64,000 nt of DNA from Candidatus Nomurabacteria bacterium (GCA_020632415.1 JACKFO010000002.1:711918-775917); one strand, 5' to 3'; counted from the stretch's first letter, positions 15,669-63,667 are shown. Notes: generated from the letters alone by a model not told the origin. Translations and numbers: made by a program.

Positions 15669-16280
15669 TCAGCGGAGCTCGACGTACCAGTCGACTGGCT
15701 TACCATTGAATTCCACCTTGTGACGATCGTCACGAATCGTCACCTTGGTGTAGTGGTTTTCTCCACGCGAAGTTTTCCAGTGAATGGTCATGGGGCCTGG
15801 GCTCAGGTAAAGCGCCTGACTAGCTTGACCGACTTCCAAGTGACCAACATTGCTGTAGCCACGGTAGGATACGATGTCAATTGGCTCTCGATAAGTATTG
15901 ATGAAGTAGCCTTCCAGTCGAGGCATGTTGTTTAGCAGGAAATCGTCTAGCTTAATTTCCTGAATTCCAGACCAGCGTCCGGTTCGCTGAATTGTGATCG
16001 CTTGTTCGTCTGAATATTGATCGATTTCGAGCCAGTACTTGACTCTCAGTCGAAGCTGGTCTTGGCGCGGCGTTTGAAAGCTGTGGCTTTGACCGGGCAG
16101 TAATTCAACGTAGGAGTTTCCCGAAGCTTCGGCCACGCTGAACATTACTCGCTCTCTGTCAGCTACGACTTTCCACTGACAAAACTCTTCGTTGTAATTC
16201 ATGCCACCATGGTAAGTGGCGCAGCCGGTCAGGAAGGCGACAAAGAGGATTGTCAGCCAGAGCAGTTTGTTGATCTTCAT
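15669..16280 (-). CDS. Hypothetical lipoprotein in a GC-rich island
   Basis: Signal peptide MKINKLLWLTILFVAFLTGC with lipobox. SD aggaaaag precedes the ATG at 16280. Local GC is about 50% against about 30% in the flanks. Confidence 0.55.
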   Translation of the reverse strand: MKINKLLWLTILFVAFLTGCATYHGGMNYNEEFCQWKVVADRERVMFSVAEASGNSYVELLPGQSHSFQTPRQDQLRLRVKYWLEIDQYSDEQAITIQRTGRWSGIQEIKLDDFLLNNMPRLEGYFINTYREPIDIVSYRGYSNVGHLEVGQASQALYLSPGPMTIHWKTSRGENHYTKVTIRDDRHKVEFNGKPVDWYVELR

Positions 16281-16392
16281 GGTCTTTTCCTTCTGCTTGT
16301 TTGATTGTCCAAGGTTCAAATCATTATATTATACTCTATTTTATCTATTTTGTCAATACACTTCGTCTTTTTGCATATGCTATAATTTAGCT

Positions 16393-44846: not shown

Positions 44847-45248
44847 TCAGCCTCTAAGTAGAGCCATGATCCTTCCCATTGCTGCGAGCTCGTCTTCTCC
44901 CTTGGCCTTGATCAAGGGGAAGAATGACCGACAAAAACGAGTATGGTTGTCGTTCCACCAAGAATCAACAAAGCCGTTGAGCATATTTCTCGCGCAAGAT
45001 GTTTTTTCTTGCTCGAATAAGCTAAGGCAATACAGGACTTCCAAGATGAGCAACTTATCGATTTCTTCGGCGCTGATTTCTACCCCTTCTTCTCGGAGCA
45101 CGTCTGCGCTTTTGAAGTACACAATTAACTGTAAAAAGCCGAGGACGTTTTCTCGATAGTTTAGAGCGCACCTTAAGCCGAAGTATTGCTCTTGGGTTTT
45201 TCTGTCAAAGGGATCGCTGATGACTAGCTCTATCTCGTTGATCTTCAT
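44847..45248 (-). CDS. Hypothetical protein in a GC-rich island
   Basis: 133 aa; SD GGAGG 8 nt before the ATG; GC about 48%. Confidence 0.45.
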   Translation of the reverse strand: MKINEIELVISDPFDRKTQEQYFGLRCALNYRENVLGFLQLIVYFKSADVLREEGVEISAEEIDKLLILEVLYCLSLFEQEKTSCARNMLNGFVDSWWNDNHTRFCRSFFPLIKAKGEDELAAMGRIMALLRG

Positions 45249-47994: not shown

Positions 47995-48936
47995 TTAGGA
48001 AGTGATCGCTTCGGGTTTCGTTTTCGTGGGTTTCTTGAAGATGGCTTTCCACACCAGAAGCAGGAGCCAGGCGCTCAGCTTGCCACAGGCGATGTAGCTG
48101 ATGAGCAGGACGTTGAGGTGGAGGTAGTTGAGGTCTAGTTGTGGCAAGAGCAGACCTTTCATGATGACGCCATAGCAGGCAAAGAAAATTAGTAAATGGA
48201 ACGCAGAGATAATAAGTCTCCAGTCTTCGCTCCAACGTTTCTTTCCTCGCACGGGAGAGAAATGGCCAAGTAAGACAGAAGCAACTACTATCATGATCAT
48301 GTACGATAGAAAAAGTTTGTCATAAATGACCGTCAGATTGAGAAAGCCCAGAGCCAGCAGGTAGTAGCCGAAGCTAAACCAGCCAAAGGGATGAAACTTG
48401 TTTTCCTTCGCTTTCACTCGAATCAGCCAGAAGAACCAAAAGCCCAGAGCAAAGAGGGGCCAGAACAACCAAGCTATCACTGGCGCTTTTTGATTGGCTG
48501 GTGTTTTTCCGCTCTGGTCAACGAAAGATCGATTCAGATCGTCAATGGTGATGATGTGCGTTGTTCTCTCACCGTGGAGCAATGGCACTGACCAGGGAGG
48601 AAAGAGTTTGATGCCTTGCCAATGATTGGTTTCGATTTGGATCGTGTCTCGTTGGCCATTGGTCAGGCCATAGAGCCAGTATTGGTGAACCAAGTTTTGA
48701 TCTAGTAGCTTCTGAACGCTTTCCGGAATTTGATAGCTCGCCTTCCGTTGCATCGGCTTAACGATTTTGATTTCGATGATCTCCTGTTGGTCGATGACCA
48801 TCGACTGGCCGACGATGTTGAAGTCTTGTTCTGTTCTTGCGTTGTAGCTGCTATCTGCTTCGGCCATCGGATAAGCCAGGGCAGTGGCGCTGGCTAGCAG
48901 AAGGCTGAGCCAAAAGGCGCAAAAGAGGTTCTTCAT
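47995..48936 (-). CDS. Hypothetical secreted/membrane protein in a GC-rich island
   Basis: Signal peptide, a periplasmic domain of about 150 aa, then 4-5 TM helices. SD GGAGA; GC about 48%. Confidence 0.5.
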   Translation of the reverse strand: MKNLFCAFWLSLLLASATALAYPMAEADSSYNARTEQDFNIVGQSMVIDQQEIIEIKIVKPMQRKASYQIPESVQKLLDQNLVHQYWLYGLTNGQRDTIQIETNHWQGIKLFPPWSVPLLHGERTTHIITIDDLNRSFVDQSGKTPANQKAPVIAWLFWPLFALGFWFFWLIRVKAKENKFHPFGWFSFGYYLLALGFLNLTVIYDKLFLSYMIMIVVASVLLGHFSPVRGKKRWSEDWRLIISAFHLLIFFACYGVIMKGLLLPQLDLNYLHLNVLLISYIACGKLSAWLLLLVWKAIFKKPTKTKPEAITS

Positions 48937-57698: not shown

Positions 57699-57759
57699 AG
57701 CCTAAAATTTTTTAGTAATCAATAATTTAATGCTTTAATAATAACATATTTTTTTGCAG

Positions 57760-57800
57760 AAAAGAAAAAGCCCGCTACTCTCAAGAGAGAGCGCGGGCTA
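57760..57800 (-). terminator. Rho-independent terminator of the SemiSWEET-like gene
   Basis: agcccgc...gcgggct hairpin followed by a minus-strand T-run. Confidence 0.55.
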
Positions 57801-57819
57801 CGGGTGCGTGGAGATTTGT

Positions 57820-58107
57820 TCACGAGAAGTGTCGATAGTAGAAGATGAGCATGATCACGGTTGTGGTGACAAGCGCGCTCAATGTCATGCAGACCACAAG
57901 GACATTGCTTCTCTTGATGTAGCCCTCGAAAGCAAAGGCGATCTGAATGAGAAAATAGATCGCAAACATTTCGATGGCTAGTCCCTCGGTTTGCTTTGTC
58001 TGGATGAGGCGGATGAGCTGAGGAATCATTGCCATTACATTGACCAATCCCGCTATCCAGATGATGAATGACCAACGAATTTTGGCCGCGAATTCTTCGC
58101 GTGTCAT
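57820..58107 (-). CDS. PQ-loop / SemiSWEET-like three-TM protein (GC-rich island)
   Basis: AMIPQLIRLIQTK PQ-loop motif in 95 aa with three TM helices. SD AGGAGAAGG precedes the ATG at 58107. Confidence 0.55.
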   Translation of the reverse strand: MTREEFAAKIRWSFIIWIAGLVNVMAMIPQLIRLIQTKQTEGLAIEMFAIYFLIQIAFAFEGYIKRSNVLVVCMTLSALVTTTVIMLIFYYRHFS

Positions 58108-58127
58108 GGCCTTCTCCTGTCCGTGGA

Positions 58128-58736
58128 TTATACCCATTCAGTAATAGGCAATCGGTTCCTGATGCGATAAACGCACAGAACGCCACATATCATACTTGCG
58201 GCAATGAGCATGTACACTGGCAGTGCGTAGTTAGCGAAAGTGTGCTCAGTGATGGCGAGGATCGACAGGCCATAGCCGATGCCGAACATGCCCCAGGCGA
58301 ATGGACGATCTTCATGTGGGTTTTTCCAAACAAACTTAAGTATTGGAATTCCAGCACAGGCATCGGCTATAATTGCTAAGTATAGTGCGAATTGGACTTT
58401 TGATGGCTCGTTGCGCACTAAGATCCATGATGCGATTGCGATGATGCCGATTAACCCGCAAGCGATGTCCCAGCCGTCAATCTTTTTACTTGATCCGCGC
58501 CACCACGCAAGTACGGTGATGATTGTGGGGTTTGCCGCTCCCAGTATTGCGGGCCAGATATTGCTAGTTGCACCGGAGGCATCATAAGTGGCTAGTAGCG
58601 CCCAACCAATAATTGACCAGATGATCCAACTGATTAAGTTCAGCGTAATTTTTCTCTGATACACTCTGATTGCGTATGGCATTGCACTTACCATAACAAT
58701 CAGGCCAGAGATTTGACCGATCGTCTCTGCTTTCAA
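58128..58736 (-). CDS. Hypothetical polytopic membrane protein (internally repeated; possibly PnuC/SWEET-fold-like), GC-rich island
   Basis: TTG start with SD AGGAG. Two similar halves (AMPYAIRVYQRK... and AGIPILKFVWKNP...) and Trp-rich helices. Confidence 0.45.
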   Translation of the reverse strand: MKAETIGQISGLIVMVSAMPYAIRVYQRKITLNLISWIIWSIIGWALLATYDASGATSNIWPAILGAANPTIITVLAWWRGSSKKIDGWDIACGLIGIIAIASWILVRNEPSKVQFALYLAIIADACAGIPILKFVWKNPHEDRPFAWGMFGIGYGLSILAITEHTFANYALPVYMLIAASMICGVLCVYRIRNRLPITEWV

Positions 58737-58915: not shown

Positions 58916-59962
58916 ATGCGAATTTTAGCCCTAGAATCCTCTTGTGACGAAACAGCCTTGGCCATTATTTCTGGCTCTGGTTCAGATTGGGTTTTGGAAA
59001 AAGATATTGTTTACTCGCAAATTGCTATACATCAAAAATACGGTGGCGTTGTCCCAGAAGTAGCAGCTCGCAAACACGCGGAAACTATTTTTCCTTTACT
59101 TACAGAAACTCTAGGTGAAGAAAAATTGGCAACAATAGATTATTTAGCAGTGACTGCTGGCCCAGGTTTAGTTGCTTCTTTGCTTTTGGGAGTAACTGCG
59201 GCTAGAAGTTTAGCTTACGCTGCCGCTAAACCTCTTTTACCGGTAAATCATATGGAAGGTCATATTTATTCTAACTGGCTTTCTAATTCAGAGCTTAAGA
59301 ATAATGATCAAAAATATTTTCCTAGTCTAGCCTTAGTTGTTTCCGGTGGGCATACTGAATTAGTGTTAATGAAAAATCATGGTGATTATCAGCTGCTAGG
59401 CACAACTCAAGATGATGCAGTCGGTGAGGCTTTTGATAAAGTGGCAAAAATTTTGAATCTTGGCTATCCAGGCGGACCAATAGTTTCTAAGGAAGCTTTA
59501 GAAGGTGATGATCAGGCCTATAAATTGCCACGTCCAATGTTAAATTCCGGAGATTATAATTTTTCTTTTTCCGGATTAAAAACTGCGGTGCTTTATACTT
59601 TGGAACGAGAGAAAAATATTTCCCAAGCCGCAGTCAAAAATATCTGTGCCAGCTTTCAAGCAGCAGCAGTTGAATTATTAGTTAAAAAAACTATCAAAGC
59701 AGCGCAAGAGTTTCAAGTAAAATCAATCATGATCGCTGGCGGAGTCTCAGCTAATCAACTTTTACGTGAAGAATTAAAAAAAGAAAGCACAAAAATATCT
59801 TTGCCCTTATTTTATCCAGAATTAAAATATACCGGAGACAACGCGGCAATGATTGCAGTAGCAGCTTATTATGGTTTACAGAACAAAAATAAAAAAATAT
59901 TAAAAGGAGAAGAAATTTTTAGCGCTAAACCTCTTTCTAATTGGCAAATTTTTTTAAAATAA
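58916..59962 (+). CDS. tsaD: tRNA N6-adenosine threonylcarbamoyltransferase
   Basis: MRILALESSCDETALAII and HMEGHI. Confidence 0.9.
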   Translation: MRILALESSCDETALAIISGSGSDWVLEKDIVYSQIAIHQKYGGVVPEVAARKHAETIFPLLTETLGEEKLATIDYLAVTAGPGLVASLLLGVTAARSLAYAAAKPLLPVNHMEGHIYSNWLSNSELKNNDQKYFPSLALVVSGGHTELVLMKNHGDYQLLGTTQDDAVGEAFDKVAKILNLGYPGGPIVSKEALEGDDQAYKLPRPMLNSGDYNFSFSGLKTAVLYTLEREKNISQAAVKNICASFQAAAVELLVKKTIKAAQEFQVKSIMIAGGVSANQLLREELKKESTKISLPLFYPELKYTGDNAAMIAVAAYYGLQNKNKKILKGEEIFSAKPLSNWQIFLK

Positions 59963-59978
59963 AAAGCGATTTAAATTT

Positions 59979-60404
59979 ATGAGAGAATATATTTCTAATA
60001 ATCTTCAAGAGACAAATGAATTGGCAAAAAAAATTATTGCTGATTTACAAGATAAGCGTTTGATTGCTTTATCGGGTAATCTTGGTGCTGGTAAAACTGC
60101 CCTGGTTAAAGCGATTGCTGAAAATCTAGGAATCAAAGAAGCGATCACTAGTCCGACTTTTGTTTTGTTAAAAGTTTATAATTTAAATTTTAAAAATTTA
60201 AAAAAATTGGTCCACATTGATTGTTATCGTTTGGATGGCGAGGAAGATTTGCAGGATTTGGGGCTAGAGGATTATATCGCTGATCCAGAAGCTTTGGTTT
60301 TGATCGAGTGGGCAGAAAAGATCAAGAATTTACCAGAAGCTAATTTGTTAAAAATAAAGATTGAAATTTTAGGAAATAAGGAAAGAAAAATAATAATTTC
60401 ATAA
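59979..60404 (+). CDS. tsaE: tRNA threonylcarbamoyladenosine biosynthesis ATPase
   Basis: LSGNLGAGKTALVK...SPTFVLLKVY. Confidence 0.85.
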   Translation: MREYISNNLQETNELAKKIIADLQDKRLIALSGNLGAGKTALVKAIAENLGIKEAITSPTFVLLKVYNLNFKNLKKLVHIDCYRLDGEEDLQDLGLEDYIADPEALVLIEWAEKIKNLPEANLLKIKIEILGNKERKIIIS

Positions 60405-60417
60405 TATATCATATTAT

Positions 60418-60452
60418 TGACTTTTTTATCTTTTTGGTGTATAGTATCAAAA
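60418..60452 (+). promoter_or_regulatory. Near-consensus sigma-70-type promoter (TTGACT, 17 nt spacer, TATAGT)
   Basis: ttgacttttttatctttttggtgtatagtat. Confidence 0.45.
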
Positions 60453-60555
60453 TCGTCGGGTACATTGATGAAACCAAGTAAACTGACAAGGGGTCAGTTT
60501 TTGGTTTAAAGTAACGTGAGAAAGATTGACTCACGTTAGCACGGAGGGAAGTTTC

Positions 60556-60816
60556 GTGAGTGCAGCAGCAGGCAAACAGAAGAAGCCGACAGCCTTCGAG
60601 AGACGGTCGCAGTTTCGCAAGGGCAAGACCTTGGATCAACTGAGCGAGGAGCAGATTTCGAACTTGCTCAGGGATTCCAAGACTTGCACCAACGCTCATC
60701 TGCGCGTCGACGGAAAGTGTATCTGGATTTCGTCAATCAACGGCACGGTCACCGGCTACGATTGTCGACGTCAGACACGTCAGTTCCGTCGGGAAGAATG
60801 CGAAGTCCTGATCTGA
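60556..60816 (+). CDS. Small basic Cys-containing protein encoded in a GC-rich island (GTG start)
   Basis: GGAGGG lies 7 nt before the GTG. The ORF is 87 codons at about 55% GC with GC3-rich codon usage, and a strong terminator follows. Confidence 0.35.
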   Translation: MSAAAGKQKKPTAFERRSQFRKGKTLDQLSEEQISNLLRDSKTCTNAHLRVDGKCIWISSINGTVTGYDCRRQTRQFRREECEVLI

Positions 60817-60841
60817 ACTTCTGGCCTCACGAGCGCGTCAC

Positions 60842-60878
60842 ACACTGTCGATCTTCGGGTCGACAGTGTCTTTTTTTT
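60842..60878 (+). terminator. Strong rho-independent terminator (UUCG tetraloop hairpin followed by T8)
   Basis: acactgtcgatc-ttcg-gggtcgacagtgt then tttttttt. Confidence 0.75.
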
Positions 60879-60934
60879 GACAAAATGAAGAAAATAGATT
60901 ACTTTTATAGTACAAGTAAATAAAAAACATTTGA

Positions 60935-61112
60935 TCCAAGATTTAATGTCCCTTGGAGAGTTGCTGAAAGAAATCTAAAGTTTAGAAAGTAGACTCAGTC
61001 GGGGTGCGCCCGTTATTGCGCTAAAATTAAGTGTCTCTTAGTTCAAGAGAAATTAAGGTGGTACCGTCAAGTTTTGACTTGACCCTTAAACGCAAATTAA
61101 TGCGTTTTTTAT
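60935..61112 (+). promoter_or_regulatory. T-box riboswitch leader of valS
   Basis: T-box core aaattaaGGTGGTACCGtc at 61051-61070, against the consensus AAUUAGGGUGGUACCGCG. A downstream terminator aaacgcaaattaatgcgtttttt sits at 61088-61110. Stem-I-like agagttgctgaaag and a candidate GUA specifier lie upstream. Confidence 0.5.
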
Positions 61113-61126
61113 TTTAAATAAAATTT

Positions 61127-63667
61127 ATGGATAAACAAGATAATTTTAATTTAGCCAAAGCTTACGAGCCACAAGAGTATGAGGCAGAGATTTATCGTCT
61201 TTGGGAGGAGTCAGGATTTTTTAATCCAGACAATTTATCTGAAGGCAAAGAGTCTTTTACTATTTCTATGCCACCACCAAATGCAACTGGAATTTTGCAC
61301 TTGGGTCATGCTTCGACCTTGGCTTATCAAGATTTAATGATTCGTTATCAGCGTTTACGTGGTAAAAAAACCTTGTGGCTACCAGGCACTGATCACGCGG
61401 CCATTGCTACACAAACTAAGGTTGAAAAAATTTTGGCTGAAAAAGGGGTGGATCGACATAGTTTAGGTCGCGAAAAATTTTTGGAAAAAGTCAAAGAGTA
61501 CGTGGCAGACTCTCAAGGCACCATTCGTAATCAAATTAGAAAAATAGGGTCTAGTTGCGATTGGTCTCGTGAGGCCTATACTTTTTCAGATAGTTTGTCT
61601 GTCGCGGTTAACGAAGCTTTTGTGCGCATGTATAACGATGGCTTGATTTATCGTGGCTATCGGATAGTAAATTGGTGTCCACGTTGCGCTTCGACTTTAG
61701 CTGATGATGAAGTGGAATACCAAGAACAGCTTGGTAAATTATATTACATCAAATACGGACCATTTGTTGTGGCAACAACTAGACCAGAAACAAAATTAGC
61801 CGATACTGGCGTAGCTGTAAATCCCGAAGACACTCGTTATCAAGATTATCTAGGACAAGTTTTAGAAATTGATCTAGCTGGTCATAAAATCAAAGTCAAA
61901 GTTTTTGCCGATGCGCAGGTAGATTCAGAATTTGGCAGCGGTGTAGTTGGAGTTACGCCAGCTCATAGCGCTGTTGACTATGATTTCGCTCAAAAAAATG
62001 ATTTAGAGATTATCAAATTAATTGATGAACAAGGAAAAATAATGTCTACTGGCGGTAAATATGCTGGTTTGACAGTTTTAGAAGCTCGTGAAAAATTTGT
62101 CAAAGATTTGGAAGCAGCAGGACAAATTGAAAAGATTGAAGATTTAGAAAATAATTTGTCCATTTGTTATCGTTGTGATACTCCGATCGAGCCTCTGACT
62201 TCTGAGCAATGGTTTGTGGCGGTAGACAAAAAAATTCCCGGTCGCGATCAGACTTTGAAAGAGTTGGCTATTCAAGCGGTTAAAAATAAAGAAATAAAAA
62301 TTGTTCCTGATCGTTTTTCCAAAGTTTATTATCATTGGATGGAAAATTTACACGACTGGTGTATTTCTCGACAAATTTGGTGGGGTCATCAGATTCCAGT
62401 TTGGTACAGCGAAGATCAAAAAATGATCGTGGCTATTTCTGAAGAAGATGCCTTAAAAAAAGCAGGTGGCCAAAAGATTGCTCGCGATCCAGATACTTTG
62501 GATACTTGGTTTTCTTCTTCTTTGTGGACTTTTTCAACTCTTGGTTGGCCAGAAAAAACAAAAGATTTAGATTTATTTCATCCGACAAGTGTGATGGAAA
62601 CGGGTTATGATATTTTATTTTTTTGGGTAGCACGCATGATTTTGATGTCAGAGTATTTACTTGAAAGTAAGCCTTTTGAAACTGTTTATCTTCATGGCAT
62701 GATCAGAGATAAAGAAGGTAAGAAAATGTCTAAGTCTTTGGGCAACGGCATTGATCCGATTGAGATGATCGAAAAATTTGGCACCGATGCCTTACGTCTT
62801 TCTTTGATTATCGGTTCAAGCCCTGGGGCAGATTTAAGGCTTTACGAAGAGAAAATTGAAGGCTACCGTAATTTTGTAAATAAACTTTGGAATATTTCTC
62901 GTTTTGTTTTTTCACAAGTTGGAGAAATAAAAATAACTGAAAATTTACCAAAAACAGAGACTCTAGCGGACGCTTGGATTTTAGCGGAGTTTAATTTATT
63001 GATTAAAGAAGTGACTGAAAATCTAGAAACATTCAAGTTTTCTTTAGCTGGTGAAAAACTTTATGAATTTACTTGGTCAAAATTCGCTGATTGGTATTTA
63101 GAGGTTGCTAAAATAGAAAAAAATAAAGATGAGATTTTGTTGTATATTTTGCCAAGGCTGTTAACTATTTGGCATCCTTTTACGCCATTTGTAACAGAAG
63201 TAATTTGGGAGCAATTTAAGTCTGATAAATTTTTGATGATTAATCAATGGCCAAAAGCAGATGAGTCAAATCAAGAAGCTCAGGAAAATTTTAAAGATTT
63301 TATTGACTTAGTAACTCAAATTAGAAATATTAAGGCGGAAAATAAGATTCCACCAGTTGAGTTTGTAGATTGTTATCTAGAAAGTCAAGTTTTGAGCTCT
63401 GCTGACTTAGAGGTTGTAGCAAAATTAGGACGAGTTAATTTAAAAACAGAAGAAATAACAGGGGAGAACTTTGCTTCTTTTAAGTCCCGTGGTCAAATCA
63501 AGGCTGCAAAGGCGATGACTGAAAAGGAGAAAGAGGATTTAGAAAAATATATTAAGTCCCTGGAAGCAAAGCTTGGTAACAAGGCTTTTGTTGAAAATGC
63601 TCCGCCAGAGGTAGTAGCAGATAATCAAAAGCGTCTTGAAGAAGCAAAACAAAAATTAGCGAATTAA
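61127..63667 (+). CDS. valS: Valine--tRNA ligase
   Basis: HIGH region PPPNATGILHLGHA, KMSKS, and a C-terminal coiled coil. Confidence 0.95.
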   Translation: MDKQDNFNLAKAYEPQEYEAEIYRLWEESGFFNPDNLSEGKESFTISMPPPNATGILHLGHASTLAYQDLMIRYQRLRGKKTLWLPGTDHAAIATQTKVEKILAEKGVDRHSLGREKFLEKVKEYVADSQGTIRNQIRKIGSSCDWSREAYTFSDSLSVAVNEAFVRMYNDGLIYRGYRIVNWCPRCASTLADDEVEYQEQLGKLYYIKYGPFVVATTRPETKLADTGVAVNPEDTRYQDYLGQVLEIDLAGHKIKVKVFADAQVDSEFGSGVVGVTPAHSAVDYDFAQKNDLEIIKLIDEQGKIMSTGGKYAGLTVLEAREKFVKDLEAAGQIEKIEDLENNLSICYRCDTPIEPLTSEQWFVAVDKKIPGRDQTLKELAIQAVKNKEIKIVPDRFSKVYYHWMENLHDWCISRQIWWGHQIPVWYSEDQKMIVAISEEDALKKAGGQKIARDPDTLDTWFSSSLWTFSTLGWPEKTKDLDLFHPTSVMETGYDILFFWVARMILMSEYLLESKPFETVYLHGMIRDKEGKKMSKSLGNGIDPIEMIEKFGTDALRLSLIIGSSPGADLRLYEEKIEGYRNFVNKLWNISRFVFSQVGEIKITENLPKTETLADAWILAEFNLLIKEVTENLETFKFSLAGEKLYEFTWSKFADWYLEVAKIEKNKDEILLYILPRLLTIWHPFTPFVTEVIWEQFKSDKFLMINQWPKADESNQEAQENFKDFIDLVTQIRNIKAENKIPPVEFVDCYLESQVLSSADLEVVAKLGRVNLKTEEITGENFASFKSRGQIKAAKAMTEKEKEDLEKYIKSLEAKLGNKAFVENAPPEVVADNQKRLEEAKQKLAN

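Follow-up and report, generated by a model that had tools for sequence, protein, structure and literature searches.

What is encoded by a compact GC-rich island that carries strong expression signals in an AT-rich genome: a small protein or a structured RNA? The question is raised by positions 60409-60880 of a 64,000-nucleotide stretch from Candidatus Nomurabacteria bacterium (GCA_020632415.1 JACKFO010000002.1:711918-775917; the whole stretch is called the window below), where a small unit lies between tsaE and valS. An earlier note, made from the sequence alone, had described a promoter, two leader hairpins, a GGAGGG-7nt-GTG start, an 87-codon open reading frame (ORF) with four cysteines and a UUCG terminator, all of which are present in the sequence (the 87 codons are 86 amino acids (aa) and a stop). 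It left the choice between a recently acquired small gene and a structured non-coding RNA (ncRNA). Here we provide evidence for the small gene, whereas the data speak against both its recent acquisition and an RNA as the main product.

Overall, we consider it quite probable that 60409-60880 is a unit for the expression of one gene, the product being a small soluble protein (86 aa) that belongs to a clade-restricted orphan family and is hyperdivergent within a conserved frame. As read from the sequence, the near-consensus promoter of the unit is conserved, its 5' stem-loop is conserved in structure, and both the Shine-Dalgarno sequence (SD) and the terminator are strong. The predicted elements are:

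60417..60445, + strand: promoter P1 (TTGACT-17-TATAGT), agreeing with the consensus at 10 of 12 positions and the top promoter-like site in 59500-61500
60471..60507, + strand: leader stem-loop with an 8-bp core (aaactgac/gtcagttt, 60480-60500), extended by AAACCAA/UUGGUUU and followed by U5
60483..60512, + strand: candidate second promoter P2 (CTGACA-18-TAAAGT), agreeing at 9 of 12 consensus positions
60512..60538, + strand: third leader hairpin with a 9-bp stem (AACGUGAG.../...CUCACGUU); aacgtgag/ctcacgtt at 60513-60538
60540..60558, + strand: weak hairpin CACGGAG/UUUCGUG, pairing the SD with the GTG, in both the minimum free energy and the centroid structure
60543-60548, + strand: SD GGAGGG, followed by a 7-nt spacer and the GTG start codon at 60556-60558
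60556..60816, + strand: ORF of 86 aa plus stop (TGA, 60814-60816), basic, with four cysteines
60842..60878, + strand: intrinsic terminator with a 12-bp stem and a C(UUCG)G loop (60842-60869), then T8 (60871-60878)

Evidence for a protein-coding gene

The ORF has a GC content of 54% and specifies a protein with a net charge of about +7 and cysteines at positions 44, 55, 70 and 82. Its GC content at third codon positions (GC3) is 0.66, the top value of the 58 ORFs in the window (host genes: 0.21-0.35), and this maximum falls in the proposed reading frame only; it is also the single SD-preceded ORF between promoter and terminator. Because the ORF alone is not beyond chance, the decision on coding was rested on comparative data, obtained from syntenic loci of related genomes (designated by L numbers). 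Taken jointly, the open runs in six diverged syntenic loci have a chance probability of about 7e-10.

The syntenic protein of L084 (P0008, 105 aa) matches the small protein of the window over its full length (BLASTP E=1e-10, 34% identity), and both have the motifs GKTLxxLSxEQIxxL, RQxR and CEV(L/I) in common. Different codons are used at 21 of the 32 identical residues, and the nucleotide differences are distributed as 42/28/55 over the three codon positions. For L083 against L162 this distribution is 25/15/53, with a nonsynonymous divergence (dN) of 0.18 and a synonymous divergence (dS) of 1.24 (dN/dS 0.15); other pairs within the L083/L162 allele type yield dN/dS values of 0.15-0.37. Within this type, purifying selection acts on the protein. 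With amino-acid conservation and low dN/dS both observed, the island is a protein-coding gene, which bears out the small gene proposed earlier.

A structured ncRNA of about 400 nt, with the ORF as a by-product of stop-poor GC-rich sequence, would fit the GC-richness of the island within an AT-rich genome, the predicted folding of the whole transcript (z-score -4.04) and that of the leader (four predicted hairpins in 60452-60580, z = -3.76). It would also fit the observations that an open run of at least 86 codons arises in the shuffled GC-rich segment with P about 0.12 (ORF length alone is not significant), that a 96-aa antisense ORF is present too, and that on a Logan contig of SRR12358675 with the identical sequence the gene caller placed no gene between tsaE and valS. 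Like the GC-rich RNA-gene islands of AT-rich genomes, the unit is compact, has its own promoter and terminator and shows significant predicted folding; unlike these, it is conserved at the level of the protein and not of the RNA, and it matches no RNA family. Over the whole window Rfam 15 yields at the gathering score five tRNAs only, none of them in the island, and a search of 60300-61200 at E<10 returns nothing credible inside the island (the permissive scan lists PhrS, 11.8 bits, E=2.4, mainly inside the island, and AgvB, 14.7 bits, E=7.4, overlapping its first 19 nt). No transfer-messenger RNA (tmRNA) was found with ARAGORN. These searches agree with the earlier note, which had seen no tmRNA, RNase P RNA or signal recognition particle RNA in the island; a confident Rfam match, named there as evidence against its reading, was not obtained.

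Folding and nucleotide conservation likewise speak against an RNA. In synonymous-codon shuffles z ranges from -0.6 to -4.3 for GC-rich alleles and from +0.2 to -3.0 for host control genes, and the folding of the window copy beyond coding constraint (z = -2.66) falls inside the host-control range (0 to -3.0). Selection on mRNA structure was also rejected as a source of the GC-richness, the signal not being distinctive against host control genes. When the island is compared with 81 related loci (blastn, nhmmer), the identical Logan contig is the sole match: the homologues in the gap are invisible to these methods, and were found solely by direct reading of the syntenic gaps. Nucleotide conservation of the coding sequence is thus absent, which is the opposite of what is expected for a structured RNA, whereas conservation of the protein with synonymous changes is clear, dN/dS in the family is as low as 0.15, and the layout of SD, start codon, ORF and terminator is kept in six loci. 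All in all, the RNA explanation deserves hardly any credence.

Divergence of the small gene between conserved flanks

The genome of the window belongs to the Patescibacteria (candidate phyla radiation, CPR); with the ValS N-terminus as query, metagenome-assembled genomes of the Patescibacteria/Parcubacteria type are retrieved at identities of at most 80% (genome contigs) and 82% (metagenome contigs). The adjacency of tsaE and valS is kept among these relatives, with a variable gap in between: 0-7 nt in many genomes, about 210-340 nt in some (containing a T-box alone), and 520-800 nt in L002, L004, L012 (identical to L088), L083 (identical to L082), L084 and the window. The gene order tsaD-tsaE-X-valS is found in L002, L004, L012, L083, L084, L163 and L164; L162, L163, L164 and L165 are further copies in this context, L162 and L165 being too short to include all neighbours. 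Read directly, the long gaps contain every time a near-consensus promoter, a hairpin leader, GGAGG, ATG, an ORF (74-128 codons, with MSAAA, MSQQ and MAAGQ as frequent starts) and a strong terminator. In the window the promoter of the small gene begins 13 nt past the stop of tsaE (Pfam TsaE; stop at 60404). No partner gene stands beside the small gene, whose neighbours are tsaD, tsaE and valS only.

Pairwise profiles show 80-92% nucleotide identity across tsaE, promoter/leader, valS promoter and valS, and identity at background level precisely from the start codon to the terminator; in these alignments coding sequence and terminator are hyperdivergent relative to all their surroundings. For L004 and L083, ValS and TsaE are 91.6% and 91.5% identical against 25% for the small protein (flanks: dN about 0.05, dS about 0.6; small gene: dN about 1.0, synonymous sites saturated), and for L004 and L162 these values are 97% (TsaE) and 24%. 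Positive selection on amino acids alone is an inadequate explanation, because synonymous sites, nonsynonymous sites and terminator have all diverged. Between L083 and L164 the dS of valS is 0.005, against a dS of 0.134 and a dN of 0.05 for the small gene, a contrast that argues for local import of a diverged allele. Moreover, leader type and coding type are incongruent: L084 has an L002-like leader and a coding sequence nearest to that of the window. The simplest reading of these alignments is that old alleles are replaced by homologous recombination in the conserved flanks. Deeply diverged alleles would be exchanged between lineages in this way, with tsaE, promoter and leader as the flank on one side and valS promoter and valS on the other.

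Two further mechanisms were considered and rejected. The gene does not behave as target of a diversity-generating retroelement: divergence spans the whole coding sequence and the terminator, indels included, the 64-kb window contains no template-like repeat, and no part of the island was found a second time, either within the window or locally. An integron cassette is rejected on architecture only (own conserved promoter, a single unit, location between housekeeping genes), attC motifs not having been formally searched. Flanking repeats and an integrase were not found either.

The high GC3 might instead point to a recent foreign gene (toxin or regulator), as the earlier note had considered; it would have come from a donor of about 50-55% GC, together with the other GC-rich islands. 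The contrast with the host genes is in line with this, and so is the absence of the gene in several related genomes, where tsaE abuts valS. Besides, GC3 is bimodal in the window, and four further orphan ORFs form one compositional class with the small gene:

15669-16319, - strand: GC3-rich orphan ORF
44847-45248, - strand: GC3-rich orphan ORF
47995-48936, - strand: GC3-rich orphan ORF
58128-58736, - strand: GC3-rich orphan ORF

The GC3 of these four amounts to 0.52-0.61, at least three of the four sequences inspected have their own GC-rich terminator-like hairpin, and none of the three scanned (15669-16319, 47995-48936 and 58128-58736) has a Pfam match above the curated cut-off. Nonetheless, atypical GC3 is the sole mark of import that was found. 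In at least six diverged lineages a homologue fills the tsaE-valS gap, promoter and leader being homologous as well (flank dS 0.6-2.5), and no homologue was found outside the clade (5.8 billion clusters, 1.84 billion representative proteins) or in phages, plasmids and viral contigs. In addition, GC3 is high (0.53-0.66) in 6 of 8 alleles (the exceptions being L004 with 0.47 and L012 with 0.29), and a long stay in an AT-rich genome should have erased it. Since high GC3 spans alleles of long-diverged lineages and no GC-rich donor is visible in the databases searched, recent transfer is not supported and we regard it as improbable.

A force that maintains the GC bias appears to exist, and high GC3 would then be a maintained property of the locus, not the residue of a recent import. 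Either GC-biased gene conversion at a recombining locus or selection could keep it up; for bacteria such conversion is a published possibility, and GC3 has been found to be associated with recombination (PMC4450053).

The region upstream of tsaD has a GC-rich slot as well (window 57719-58736; L004 1401-1800; L012 601-1200; L164 201-600; L015 1601-2000), and tblastn with the window proteins encoded there (202 aa and 155 aa) gave no match in the flanks of the relatives. The slot has the appearance of a second island, GC-rich and variable, beside the same core operon. On the identical public contig the gene called in this slot (L001 776-1003, + strand, 75 aa) corresponds to window positions 57754-57981; the longest ORF of the window at this place is 57719-58186 (- strand, 155 aa), which with GC1 0.57, GC2 0.46 and GC3 0.35 is unlike the other islands.

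Divergent alleles at a fixed position recall several known systems. In competence or quorum pherotype loci (comC, comQXP, agr) and in bacteriocin-immunity loci, allele polymorphism is kept by recombination and balancing selection. As in those loci, near-unrecognisable alleles lie here between highly conserved flanks, the genealogies of allele and flank are discordant, and each allele is under purifying selection. Unlike them, the small gene has no adjacent co-varying receptor, processing or export gene and no signal or cleavage motif, and its product looks, in the models, folded and cytoplasmic. The flexible islands of Prochlorococcus and SAR11 are hypervariable islets between core genes in streamlined bacteria, and resemble the present locus in atypical composition, orphan content, strain-level variability and fixed position. 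In contrast to these islets, however, the slot is always filled by a single small gene from the one distantly related family, and promoter and leader are conserved while only coding sequence and terminator turn over.

A more far-reaching explanation would treat the tsaE-valS gap as a dedicated allele-exchange locus, with ancient alleles under balancing selection and the GC-richness as a footprint of gene conversion. The conserved promoter, the 5' hairpin and the flanking core genes would then serve as a fixed frame for expression and recombination, in which mutually unrecognisable alleles of one small Cys protein, serving episymbiotic bacteria as a strain-specific factor for recognition, immunity or defence against phage, would be swapped. 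The GC-richness of the other orphan islands would likewise result from GC-biased conversion at hotspots of recombination, in a genome that is AT-rich and streamlined. We think of this explanation as rather unlikely.

Several observations weigh against the unit as we read it, the missing gene call among them. The gene of the window has one clear homologue (L084), and allele replacement is demonstrated among the relatives and not for the window genome. Between the window and L084 the dN of the small gene is 0.66, against 0.35 for tsaE and 0.16 for valS, i.e. only 2-4 times faster. The window/L084 and L083/L002/L004 types resemble each other weakly in sequence (hhalign E=0.0075 at a probability of 5%; BLASTP E about 0.01), the link being drawn mainly from synteny and shared architecture, and some cassettes may have a separate origin. 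Confidence of the AlphaFold2 models is low (predicted local distance difference test score, pLDDT: 55.7 from the single sequence, 53.5 from the 9-sequence alignment). Finally, most P1 transcripts could end at the leader hairpin with its U5, in which case high expression would be doubtful. The island adds a new, unannotated member to a clade-restricted family of small proteins, a family whose expression frame is fixed and whose alleles are probably replaced.

Promoter, leader and adjacent signals

The predicted transcription start of P1 lies near 60452, and in the relatives a promoter TTGACT-N16-TATAAT with TGn is conserved at the same relative position. Promoter-like sites occur six times in the region (4.9 expected from shuffling; not above chance) and terminator-like sites four times (1.4 expected; above chance). 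The homologous units all close with a strong terminator, and the sequences of these terminators are unrelated. Such expression signals would imply high and constitutive expression.

Every homologous unit has a hairpin of about 8 bp at about 20-30 nt past the predicted transcription start. In the covariation analysis (for which the hairpin segments were chosen by eye, the window copy being one column out of register) 85.9% of the cells are paired, all eight pairs are altered on both sides, and none of 500 shuffles was as good; pairing drops to 12-47% when the registers are slid by 1-3 columns. The structure of the leader hairpin is thus kept through compensatory changes and its sequence is not. 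As the hairpin does not track the protein allele, an allele-specific autoregulatory site is unlikely. Stabilising 5' hairpins are found in the mRNA leaders of ompA and aprE; the present hairpin resembles these in being short, stable and about 20-30 nt from the predicted 5' end, with structure conserved and sequence not. It differs in that in the window and L012 it is accompanied by a U-run and could terminate transcription, a stabilising role being putative. The leader stem-loop may act as a 5' structural or stabilising element, as a partial terminator, or as the terminator of the tsaD-tsaE transcript.

The last two options lead to an explanation that is compatible with the protein-coding unit, namely that the leader is a regulatory or RNA element of its own: the hairpin with U5 (60480-60505) would end both P1 transcripts and read-through transcripts from tsaD-tsaE, giving a roughly 55-nt RNA or attenuation, and the ORF would be expressed by read-through or from P2. 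The hairpin indeed scores as terminator-like, and the window and L012, the loci in which no separate terminator was seen after tsaE, are also those with a U-run after the hairpin. Furthermore, a 16-nt direct repeat of the P1 -10 region just past the hairpin (60431-60446, TTTTTGGTGTATAGTA, and 60498-60513, TTTTTGGTTTAAAGTA; 88% identical) accounts for a P2-like site inside the leader, and, besides the covarying hairpin, another one occludes SD and start codon. Nevertheless, the U-run is absent in the L083/L004 type and short and interrupted in L002/L084, so that attenuation is not family-wide; P2 is the weaker promoter, and no known riboswitch or leader family is matched. An independent role of the leader is possible, yet we lean against it.

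The third leader hairpin has no counterpart in the leaders of the relatives and is specific to the window genome. With respect to the upstream operon, a terminator of tsaE itself was not seen in the window, while L083, L084 and L162 have a GC-rich hairpin and T-run between tsaE and the promoter (junction coordinates: window 60404-60417; L084 about 1925-1950; L083 about 1840-1865). Judged from the sequence, transcription of tsaD-tsaE in the window probably either stops at the leader hairpin or continues into the small gene. Another recurring element is GCAGCAG(CAG) followed by AAAC(A/C)G, present in the leaders and 5' coding ends of the window (60562-60578), L002, L084, L004 and L083. For most relatives it is located in the leader; in the window and L002 it stands just past the start codon, where it encodes SAAA.

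Beyond the terminator of the unit follows the leader of valS:

60921-61090: T-box leader upstream of valS, with the T-box sequence GGUGGUACCG and a terminator at 61088-61107

This T-box is the only real signal of the permissive Rfam scan (51.9 bits against a gathering score of 93), and its Stem I region is strongly shortened (12 nt against 75 in the model). A GUA (Val) triplet at AAAGUAGAC, picked out by eye, is a candidate specifier. A T-box is present in L012, L015, L010 and L086, and a promoter alone precedes valS in L002, L004, L083 and L084.

The protein family and its possible role

In a word-indexed search of 5.8 billion clusters the window protein alone gave no word-sharing candidate, and together with the family alignments it retrieved only the syntenic proteins themselves, one of them annotated as 'hypothetical protein'. 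Among 1.84 billion representative proteins phmmer found no credible match; three weak ones, all to repeat proteins (a beta-propeller, a multi-PAS protein and a protein with LSELTEEQI...VDGYNI repeats), are judged to be inflated by summing over repeats. Searches of Pfam-A, PHROGs, PADLOC and PDB sequences, with NCBIfam outside their scope, gave no significant match (best: phrog_35085, E=0.053). Across the databases covered, the proteins make up an orphan family confined to a narrow clade and always located in the tsaE-valS gap.

In the family alignment (A6, nine sequences) a Cys matching Cys55 of the window protein is the sole invariant residue, and the best-conserved segment is the helix motif GKTLxxLSxEQIxxL ahead of it. 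The structure models point to one or two helices and three or four strands besides a disordered tail; Foldseek returned nothing from the PDB at E<=0.001. The protein may be pictured, with due reserve, as a cytoplasmic domain of helix plus beta-sheet in which one Cys would be essential and which has an N-terminal tail that is disordered and variable.

A local likeness to PAS domains concerns residues 27-69, which align with the repeats of the multi-PAS protein (BLASTP E=4e-4) through the pattern DxLxE...LL...DGxCIWIS....VTGxD; this resembles the N-cap helix and the A-beta and B-beta strands, i.e. the N-terminal third of the domain. A PAS domain was nonetheless rejected: there is no Pfam PAS match, hhalign probabilities are 0.6% and 0.4%, only about 60 residues follow the disordered tail where a five-stranded PAS fold needs about 100 aa, and the best-matching stretch DGxCIWIS...VTGxD is not conserved in other family members. 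The protein P0006 (705 aa, rich in Lys, Asn and Ile) contains about ten 35-aa modules LSELTEEQIxNVEKNxKRFENLWIEVDGYNI, which are 39-40% identical to residues 26-60 of the window protein (LDQLSEEQISNLL...HLRVDGKCI; library E 8e-4, repeat-inflated). The likeness may reflect a distant relationship to the conserved core, or may be fortuitous. A Tat signal was rejected too, as the superficially twin-arginine-like ERRSQFRK is, on reading the sequence, not followed by a hydrophobic stretch.

Concerning function, the locus offers a single SD-preceded ORF, and no toxin-antitoxin-related match was found in Pfam or in PADLOC (which includes some defence modules of that type), so a type II toxin-antitoxin pair was not found. 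A precursor of a ribosomally synthesised and post-translationally modified peptide or of a signalling peptide (Nif11/NHLP, double-glycine, pherotype) would have an LSxEQ(I/L) helix as leader and a variable, Cys-containing C-terminal core. Indeed GKTLxxLSxEQIxxL resembles LSxxELxxIxGG-type leaders, the C-terminal part is variable and contains Cys, and deep allelic polymorphism exists between close genomes. Against this stand the absence of any Pfam match, leader-peptide families included, a GG cleavage motif that is not conserved in A6, a helix motif that is not N-terminal, and the beta-strands predicted past the helix; moreover, at the locus itself no gene for a modifying enzyme, a C39-peptidase transporter or a receptor is adjacent. 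A precursor is accordingly very improbable.

Our best guess, put forward tentatively and from the pattern of sequence variation, is that the small protein takes a strain-specific part in an interaction with phage, host cell or other strains, be it antagonism or recognition, because interactions of this kind usually maintain divergent alleles. In the literature we found nothing relevant on hypervariable small proteins in Patescibacteria.

The genomes of CPR/Patescibacteria are small and rich in unannotated genes, and their strain-specific interactions with hosts and phages are little understood. The present locus shows that gene callers can miss such genes, and warns against taking every GC-rich island for a non-coding RNA when it has strong expression signals and lies in an AT-rich genome. 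High GC3 that persists without a visible donor makes it a test case for recombination-linked GC bias in AT-rich genomes. Being compact and easily recognised (tsaE, conserved promoter and hairpin, variable coding sequence, valS), the locus may also be of value as a marker for strain typing and recombination studies in uncultivated bacteria, since only the coding sequence turns over while signals and neighbours are conserved.

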